The notes under the pieces are model-generated. The model worked only from the letters and a program-made list of their open reading frames with translations. It was not told the origin of the DNA and searched no databases. A program made the position numbers and the translations under genes. DNA of 64,000 nt from Candidatus Omnitrophota bacterium (GTDB lineage: Bacteria; Omnitrophota; Gorgyraeia; Zapsychrales; Zapsychraceae), in the NCBI GenBank assembly GCA_020429915.1, contig JAGQKV010000012.1, positions 65,737 to 129,736 on the forward strand, in the 5' to 3' direction. Below are positions 19,975-20,475 of this stretch, piece after piece (the stretch's first letter is position 1; each line of letters starts with the position of its first letter).

Positions 19975-20475
19975 CTAGTCTAAAAATTTAATGCTTAAAT
20001 TCTGAGATTCCCTGAATTCTTGTTGATCACTGAATTCACGGAGAATTCTGCTGATCTTCTTTACTAAATTGCCTACTATAGACTTGTAACTCTTGCTAAA
20101 CAATAAACGACCTTGGCGTTGAAAACGCACCACATCAAGTTCACCACCGTCCCGCGATAATTGAATTTCTATATCCTTCAGAAACGGCTCCCGCATAGTA
20201 CTATATACCGTAGCATCATGAACTAGTACTTTGACTGAAATATCATAGTCTGCATGACTTATTCGGTAACCTTTTGCAGCCAACCCGCTGGCTATTTGCC
20301 GCGCCAACTCTTTCTGAAAGACTGAATAGTCGGGATTGATTCTCCGCACATAAGATGGATCTTGTAAGTCTTCCGCTGAGCATGTACCAGCGAGAATAAA
20401 GGTTATCATCCAGCAAACTGTACCACCTCTCGAAAAAAACCTTAGATACTTCAACACTCTTTTCATGAAGATCAT
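19975..20475 (-). CDS. Putative immunity lipoprotein for the RHS C-terminal toxin
   Basis: Immediately downstream of the RHS gene, with the start ATG overlapping the RHS stop (ATGA). Signal peptide plus LAGTC lipobox-like Cys. Markedly AT-richer than the surrounding genome, like the toxin tip. Confidence 0.6.
   Translation of the reverse strand: MIFMKRVLKYLRFFSRGGTVCWMITFILAGTCSAEDLQDPSYVRRINPDYSVFQKELARQIASGLAAKGYRISHADYDISVKVLVHDATVYSTMREPFLKDIEIQLSRDGGELDVVRFQRQGRLLFSKSYKSIVGNLVKKISRILREFSDQQEFRESQNLSIKFLD

Follow-up and report, generated by a model that had tools for sequence, protein, structure and literature searches.

In a 64,000-nucleotide stretch of the genome of a Candidatus Omnitrophota bacterium (GenBank assembly GCA_020429915.1, contig JAGQKV010000012.1, positions 65,737 to 129,736; the whole stretch is hereafter called the window), a small gene encoding 166 amino acids (aa) overlaps the end of a large RHS gene. 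This small gene probably encodes the cognate exported immunity protein of the C-terminal tip of the RHS protein (named here CT-A). The initial annotation had proposed the immunity function, and three features agree with it, i.e., the ATGA overlap of the two genes, the low GC content at third codon positions (GC3) common to the small gene and the tip (0.40 and 0.38, respectively, as compared with about 0.7 in the neighbours) and the joint exchange of the tip and its adjacent gene among related loci. The best overall explanation, which we regard as a fairly likely one, is an acquired toxin-immunity cassette placed within a conserved Omnitrophota RHS locus, in which the exported product of the small gene would neutralise CT-A in the periplasm.

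The candidate gene, its overlap with the RHS gene and its base composition

The candidate open reading frame (ORF; 19975..20475, minus strand, with the stop codon TAG at 19977..19975) was recognised from the frame call and its translation. It is preceded by the gene of a 2134-aa protein (20472..26876, minus strand), whose designation as an RHS protein in the initial annotation was borne out by Pfam matches to RHS_repeat (E = 2.6e-37), SpvB (E = 1.2e-34), TcdB_toxin_midN (E = 1.1e-24) and FG-GAP repeats. The plus-strand bases 20472..20475 read TCAT, i.e., ATGA on the coding strand, where the ATG (20475..20473) starts the ORF and the TGA (20474..20472) ends the RHS gene. This overlap, noticed already in the initial annotation, is read directly from the bases and is kept in L001, a 960-bp contig from another sample (90% nucleotide identity), which carries the end of the tip, ATGA, the ORF and a gene of a TPR protein, in this order.

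An alternative in-frame ATG at position 20466, nine bases further in and 6 nt past the RHS stop, would give a 163-aa protein, and this form was chosen in the NCBI annotation of the metagenome-assembled genome (MCA9394074.1, "Candidatus Omnitrophica bacterium"). The overlapping start is weakly favoured, because 51 contigs on record have the 166-aa form and 7 the 163-aa form, and because the N-terminus of a distant homologue (P0003, see below), MIV..KR, resembles MIF.KR of the ORF; on the contigs that were read, gene callers chose 166 aa. A Shine-Dalgarno-like motif, present at 25 of the 47 starts in the window, was found before neither ATG of the ORF, and no promoter-like or terminator-like sites above chance were found around the ORF and the RHS end, so coupling of ORF translation to the RHS gene by termination-reinitiation at ATGA is plausible. 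As is usual for immunity genes, the ORF is placed directly downstream of the tip, on the same strand and, judging by the 4-nt overlap and the lack of promoter or terminator signals above chance, in one operon.

That the ORF is merely a chance frame or a decaying remnant without function is very improbable. It could be argued from its lack of a database family and from the number of its relatives (just three, itself included), but a 166-codon open frame has a chance probability of approximately 2e-5 in DNA of 40% GC, and the comparison with L001 revealed an unbroken frame free of indels, whereas 9–16 stops occur in the two other forward frames. The ratio of non-synonymous to synonymous change (dN/dS, Nei-Gojobori method) against L001 was 0.30, with dN lower than dS (Fisher p = 3e-5). 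Moreover, a 37% identical homologue exists in a related locus (E = 2e-12), and the core of the AlphaFold2 model reaches a pLDDT of approximately 80. The ORF is a real gene under purifying selection. It is constrained, yet its non-synonymous change is faster than that of the toxin tip: the dN of the ORF was 0.085, whereas the tip had 0.020 (p = 0.003) and the TPR gene 0.034, and dN/dS was 0.05 for the last 89 toxin codons and 0.10 for the start of the TPR gene. Past the ORF, an inverted repeat (TAGCCG-12 nt-CGGCTA; 19954..19977, minus strand) begins at the stop codon and is kept in L001; it was considered as a hairpin, but its fold z of -1.3 is not significant and it is probably nothing.

The border between the RHS core and the tip is marked by PVNNVDPSGH (RHS aa 1825–1834; 21375..21404, minus strand), a motif of the PxxxxDPxG type. 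All of the last 302 RHS codons, which make up CT-A, lie past it. They form two parts, namely a Gly/Ala/Phe-rich hydrophobic segment of low GC3 (aa 1836–1959; 21000..21371, minus strand) and a C-terminal 175-aa domain (aa 1960–2134; 20475..20999, minus strand). Along the RHS gene, GC3 falls from approximately 0.65 to approximately 0.4 directly past DPSGHGW (aa ~1831). The GC3 value is 0.40 (0.395) for the ORF and 0.38 (0.383) for the 175-aa domain, whereas the RHS core has 0.66, the TPR gene 0.72 and the other likely genes of the window 0.50–0.78 (mostly above 0.6). The low-GC block, from approximately 21380 to 19945, comprises exactly the tip and the ORF. Because the drop spans the stretch from PVNNVDPSGH to the ATG of the next gene, the tip and the ORF appear to be one horizontally acquired cassette.

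The initial annotation had called the candidate gene the most AT-rich stretch of the window, which needs correction: with a GC content of 0.403, 19975..20475 ranks second among 501-bp segments, and the lowest value (0.359) belongs to 28307..28807. The latter comprises a gene at 28424..28690 (plus strand) with its flanks, and not the immunity candidate. Its 88-aa product consists nearly entirely of Lys/Ala/Thr repeats (…KKKATKKKAVKKK…) and is histone-H1-like or nucleoid-protein-like; a strong terminator-like hairpin is located 3' of this gene.

Joint exchange of the tip and its downstream gene

A word-indexed search of 5.8 billion proteins and an exhaustive phmmer search of 1.8 billion representatives revealed a family of only three members, i.e., the window protein, P0002 of L001 (83% identical) and P0003 of another contig, L012 (171 aa; 37% identical over aa 47–144, E = 2.3e-12). 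A scan of genome contigs with the ORF alignment and a tblastn search of plasmids with the ORF gave no match. The exact 166-aa protein is present in 75 blocks of the collection, and the 24 contigs read reduce to two places with the same order of RHS, ORF, TPR and cohesin genes. Homologues without an adjacent toxin were looked for and not found; the sole distant one, P0003, is encoded in an RHS locus as well, though behind a different tip. ORF and P0003 are 33–37% identical, and the neighbouring genes of the same two loci 60–75%.

Orthologous loci were retrieved by a protein search with the TPR lipoprotein and by contig look-ups; scans of genome and metagenome contigs with the TPR alignment gave no match. 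The TPR lipoprotein (LLAGC; 19345..19944, minus strand) and a secreted 157-aa protein with a cohesin domain (18818..19291, minus strand; Pfam Cohesin at 26.1 bits, the cut-off being 24.1) are encoded in all orthologous loci that extend far enough to include them. The 23.5-kb contig L012 is syntenic with the window and carries, in order, genes of a permease, a 179-aa protein, a HemN-like radical SAM protein and the RHS protein, a variable stretch, and then genes of the TPR lipoprotein, the cohesin protein, a polyprenyl synthase and a DUF2059 protein, followed by purine genes. The RHS cores of the two loci are 60–66% identical and the TPR lipoproteins 75% identical, but beyond the DPxG motif the sequences are unrelated (best E 0.3), and homology among the loci restarts precisely with the ATG of the TPR gene, where the variable cassette has its 3' edge.

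The tip of L012 (CT-B; 8806..9480 of this contig) has a Gly-zipper-like start, a GFSQGG (GxSxG) motif and a weak match to Abhydrolase_2 (E 0.008). It is followed by the gene of a canonical 123-aa lipoprotein (LMGC; 9483..9854), unrelated to the ORF, and, 146 bp later, by the P0003 gene. Judging by these motifs, CT-B and the 123-aa protein look like a lipase-type toxin with its lipoprotein immunity partner. The same pair was found in L014 (tip at 3..1304, 77% identical to that of L012; 123-aa lipoprotein at 1305..1679), where a degenerate second copy of the 123-aa gene and the TPR gene come next and no ORF homologue is present. In four short contigs (L013, L016, L017 and L018), a member of the 123-aa family, and not of the ORF family, stands directly upstream of the TPR gene.

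CT-A is thus paired with the ORF (window and L001), and CT-B with the 123-aa lipoprotein (L012 and L014). Since the flanks are conserved and the tip and the next gene are swapped jointly, the slot that extends from the DPxG motif to the TPR gene may be regarded as a replaceable cassette. A gene right after the tip that changes with the tip, as it does in these loci, is a hallmark of cognate immunity. The CT-A/ORF cassette looks like a recent replacement in the lineage of the window, because the closest TPR relatives outside the window's own strain carry the 123-aa family (L013, with 88% TPR identity), which agrees with the un-ameliorated GC3.

Two further observations concern these contigs. 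The degenerate lipoprotein copy of L014 (approximately 1690..1770; MRGCLVLAVAVLNVGCEYKDRLYIEP*), which is interrupted by stop codons, is located past the intact copy and ahead of the TPR gene, and the slot seems to accumulate remnants of immunity genes. The RHS gene of L012 (3083..9480) is divided into three ORFs (1216, 348 and 553 aa); the apparent frameshifts, located near 6600 and 7740, may be sequencing errors (the contig name gives 2x coverage) or real pseudogenisation.

The P0003 gene itself has a GC3 of 0.61, near the host value, and no remnant of CT-A was found near it in L012. Its position behind the lipoprotein gene of another tip and its near-native GC3 fit an orphan immunity gene, presumably retained against CT-A-type toxins. 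The same position could also suggest that the ORF product serves the RHS locus as an exported accessory factor, e.g., in folding, tethering or release of the cocoon, rather than in immunity, since P0003 stands behind a different tip that has a lipoprotein of its own, and the TPR lipoprotein and the cohesin protein are likewise exported and conserved partners in the locus. We consider this improbable. True partners are always present, but the ORF is absent from L014, and in L013 and L016–L018 another family stands upstream of the TPR gene; moreover, the GC3 of the ORF matches the foreign value of the tip, not that of the core, and the ORF diverges far faster than the conserved partners of the locus.

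Predicted export of the candidate product and the possible target of the tip

The cognate immunity protein proposed here carries a predicted Sec signal peptide (aa 1–34; 20374..20475, minus strand), as the initial annotation had stated. Its n-region is basic, with five Lys/Arg within aa 5–16 (K5, R6, K9, R12 and R16), and is followed by a 13-residue hydrophobic core (TVCWMITFILAGT), whose length suits a cleavable signal and would not suffice to anchor the protein in a membrane. Signal peptides are present throughout the three-member family, and export of the ORF product by this route is thus a supported prediction.

In contrast, the claim of the initial annotation that the product is a lipoprotein was not upheld. 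The lipobox-like string LAGTC is indeed present (aa 28–32), but, with Thr at position -1 in both the window protein and P0002, it fails PROSITE PS51257 as well as the pattern [LVI][ASTVI][GAS]C. Of the lipoproteins used as controls, the TPR protein (LLAGC) passes both patterns and the 123-aa protein of L012 (LMGC) PS51257 only. In P0003, which is devoid of a lipobox, a His stands in the alignment at the place of Cys32 of LAGTC. A site for signal peptidase I can be placed in all three homologues (CSA|ED, CKA|ED and VEA|TH), and other signal peptides in the window have similar ends (ARA|E, ADA|E and GFA|Q). Because LAGTC fails the lipobox rules and the Cys is not kept in the distant homologue, cleavage by signal peptidase I at CSA|ED seems more likely than lipoprotein processing.

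A lipoprotein immunity protein, acylated at Cys32 and anchored on the periplasmic face of the membrane, is therefore a rather doubtful alternative. LAGTC does stand at the end of the h-region and is kept in both close strains, and the alternative cassette (L012 and L014) uses a canonical lipoprotein; lipoprotein immunity proteins are also known from other systems, e.g., Tli1 (PMC6889166). The organism's own lipoproteins, however, follow the canonical pattern (LLAGC in the window and, in the related L012, LMGC), and the signal region, with a dN/dS of 0.53, is not tightly held, which, together with the pattern failures and the loss of the Cys in P0003, argues against acylation.

The proposed course of events is as follows. 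The ORF would be co-transcribed with the RHS gene, its translation would start, probably, by termination-reinitiation at ATGA, and the product would be exported by Sec. Signal peptidase I would, most likely, cut after Ala34, releasing a soluble periplasmic alpha/beta protein of approximately 15 kDa. In the periplasm this protein would bind and neutralise CT-A, whether it came from sibling cells or leaked from the cell's own Sec-exported RHS cocoon. CT-A itself would act on the envelope (membranes or wall) and not in the cytoplasm. Location of an immunity protein follows the compartment of its effector (PMC6889166), and, because the immunity protein is predicted to be exported, a target in the envelope (the wall, lipids or, through pore formation, the inner membrane) is a reasonable inference and, in our opinion, a probable one. 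To this extent the earlier proposal of a toxin acting on the envelope still holds, while its part concerning lipoprotein anchoring does not; the main correction is that neither the lipoprotein call nor the specific target (peptidoglycan or lipid) has support in the sequence.

Several points weigh against the immunity interpretation. The evidence for it is comparative throughout, and the sample in which co-variation was seen is small (two tip types in about three independent lineages). The ORF family is not strictly linked to the tip, as P0003 occurs without CT-A. No significant match of the ORF was found in Pfam, NCBIfam, PADLOC, PHROGs or PDB sequences, and none of the described immunity families (Imm/SUKH/Tai/Tli-like) was matched. 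A Foldseek search of the PDB with the ORF model did not reveal a similar solved fold either (best E 0.027, TM up to 0.32). The choice between signal peptidases I and II was made with pattern rules, not with a trained predictor. Finally, charge complementarity between the partners is ruled out, since both are basic (predicted isoelectric point of 9.6 for the tip and 8.9 for the mature ORF product).

The AlphaFold2 model of the ORF product, built from the three-sequence alignment, has a mean pLDDT of 66, with a disordered N-terminus and a core (aa 50–166, pLDDT approximately 80) composed of a helix, three strands, a long helix and a strand. As far as the searches tell, this is a new sequence family in a well-known role. 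Two other roles were considered for the product and rejected. Colicin-type lysis lipoproteins have approximately 50 aa, and a protein of 166 aa is excluded by its size; Eag-type chaperones reside in the cytoplasm and have their genes upstream of that of the toxin, unlike the candidate.

The end domain of CT-A is similarly isolated, with no match in Pfam, NCBIfam, PDB sequences, plasmids (tblastn) or the metagenome contig scan. The word-indexed protein search with a 191-aa tip sequence was empty, but it missed even the tip's own 2134-aa RHS protein on record and is thus a weak negative; negatives of this search should be treated cautiously for domains inside very long proteins. The single-sequence AlphaFold2 model of the tip (pLDDT 45.5) was unusable and its Foldseek matches meaningless. 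The domain carries His52 in GHAGVGLIY and Cys137 in TANCTDWA, and at the motif level (His before Cys; LTANCTDWA against LTSENCEHFV) it resembles the LRAT/PLAAT acyltransferase-phospholipases. This identity (permuted NlpC/P60) was rejected, as the likeness is limited to the motif, the BLASTP alignment with human PLAAT3 (E = 31) falls on an unrelated segment, and no Pfam match was found; the tip is therefore not assigned there. Nor was any similarity of the tip to Tae amidases, Tle lipases or NlpC/P60-LRAT proteins detected in Pfam, NCBIfam, PDB sequences and the PLAAT3 comparison.

Considering the Gly-rich hydrophobic N-terminal half of CT-A, a membrane pore is an option equally open with a peptidoglycan or lipid target. 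In its strict form, with the Gly-zipper-like segment (aa 1836–1959) acting as a depolarising pore that the exported protein counters and the 175-aa domain not being a toxic enzyme, this idea is possible, though we would not expect it to be correct. The segment (approximately 125 residues; G 20%, A 17%) has about three hydrophobic stretches, and the unrelated CT-B likewise begins with a Gly-zipper-like segment. Glycine-zipper toxins that depolarise membranes have been reported, e.g., EsxX (PMC12744356). The Pfam Gly-zipper matches, however, are weak (E 0.005–0.008) and under the gathering thresholds, and the dN/dS of 0.05, which indicates strong purifying selection, implies a function of the 175-aa domain itself; furthermore, the Gly-rich segment is present in both tips while the downstream genes differ, which suggests that specificity resides in the end domains. 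The start common to CT-A and CT-B suggests, speculatively, a shared module for membrane insertion or delivery.

One more observation concerns the tip: 11 independent metagenome contigs on which the ORF is found all stop inside the RHS tip or where the core joins it (20741..21884), which may reflect strain-level heterogeneity of the tip or breakage of assemblies by repeated RHS cores.

The RHS locus and its possible use in Omnitrophota

The RHS protein has an N-terminal signal peptide, followed by SpvB, FG-GAP, TcdB_midN and RHS repeats and by CT-A, and a type I dockerin (aa 1402–1456; 22511..22675, minus strand; E = 1.8e-9) is inserted in its shell. RHS repeats, the PxxxxDPxG motif and unrelated variable tips beyond it place the protein among the Rhs/YD-repeat polymorphic toxins. 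Similarly to Rhs-CT/RhsI modules, the tip begins at PxxxxDPxG, a small downstream gene changes with the tip, the tip and this gene are of low GC, and an orphan-like copy (P0003) is present in a related locus. Unlike in those modules, no PAAR, VgrG or type VI secretion system (T6SS) genes are found nearby, the RHS protein has a Sec signal peptide and a TcB/TcC-like front end (SpvB, TcdB_midN), the candidate immunity protein is predicted to be exported rather than cytoplasmic, and the orphan copy is not accompanied by a toxin remnant.

With the periplasmic and lipoprotein immunity proteins of T6SS effectors (Tai for Tae amidases and Tli for Tle lipases), the ORF product shares its small size, its signal peptide and the position of its gene beside the toxin, as well as a location that implies envelope action of the toxin (the principle and the Tli1 example are given in PMC6889166). 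It differs from them in that no sequence or fold similarity was detected, the lipobox is not canonical, and the toxin is not a recognised Tae or Tle. The cocoon of Tc toxins (TcB-TcC) offers a third comparison, with the same domain order (SpvB, TcdB_midN, RHS) in one fused chain that would encapsulate the tip. Unlike in Tc toxins, no TcA-like component is encoded in the window, a dockerin is inserted in the shell, and antibacterial use is implied by the immunity-like gene next to that of the RHS protein.

No T6SS or TcA-like genes were found in the window, and the rest of it is of a housekeeping character (purine synthesis, SHMT, tRNA enzymes and radical SAM proteins). It also contains an ORF for a large, uncharacterised protein of 1730 aa (44630..49822, minus strand; normal GC3 of 0.70), whose sole Pfam signal is a sub-threshold LysM match (20.6 bits against a cut-off of 20.9).

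The dockerin of the RHS protein and the downstream genes of the cohesin protein and the TPR lipoprotein suggest that the RHS cocoon may be tethered at the envelope, the cohesin-domain protein being a possible partner of the dockerin. Giant proteins of Omnitrophota contain abundant dockerin modules, for which attachment to host or prey surfaces was proposed (preprint 10.1101/2023.11.21.568195), and a surface-tethered RHS protein would be compatible with this proposal. One may go further and envisage a delivery independent of T6SS and TcA, in which a Sec-exported BC-type RHS cocoon, tethered via its dockerin to the cohesin protein and the TPR lipoprotein, would bring swappable tips led by Gly-zipper segments into the envelopes of neighbours or prey, and the ORF product would be the first of a new periplasmic immunity fold family for a new envelope-acting toxin domain; this extended scenario is tentative and, taken as a whole, unlikely.

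In general terms, the arrangement described here is an ordinary one, a textbook polymorphic-toxin cassette, and what is new is the protein family. The pair defines two uncharacterised domains, i.e., the 175-aa tip and a 130-aa exported putative binder. Omnitrophota are very small bacteria for which dependence on hosts or predation is suspected, and they lack cultured model organisms. If the proposed interpretation is true, the CT-A/ORF pair would be the first toxin-immunity pair to test in this phylum, and stand-alone RHS proteins of Omnitrophota would be directed at the envelopes of other bacteria.

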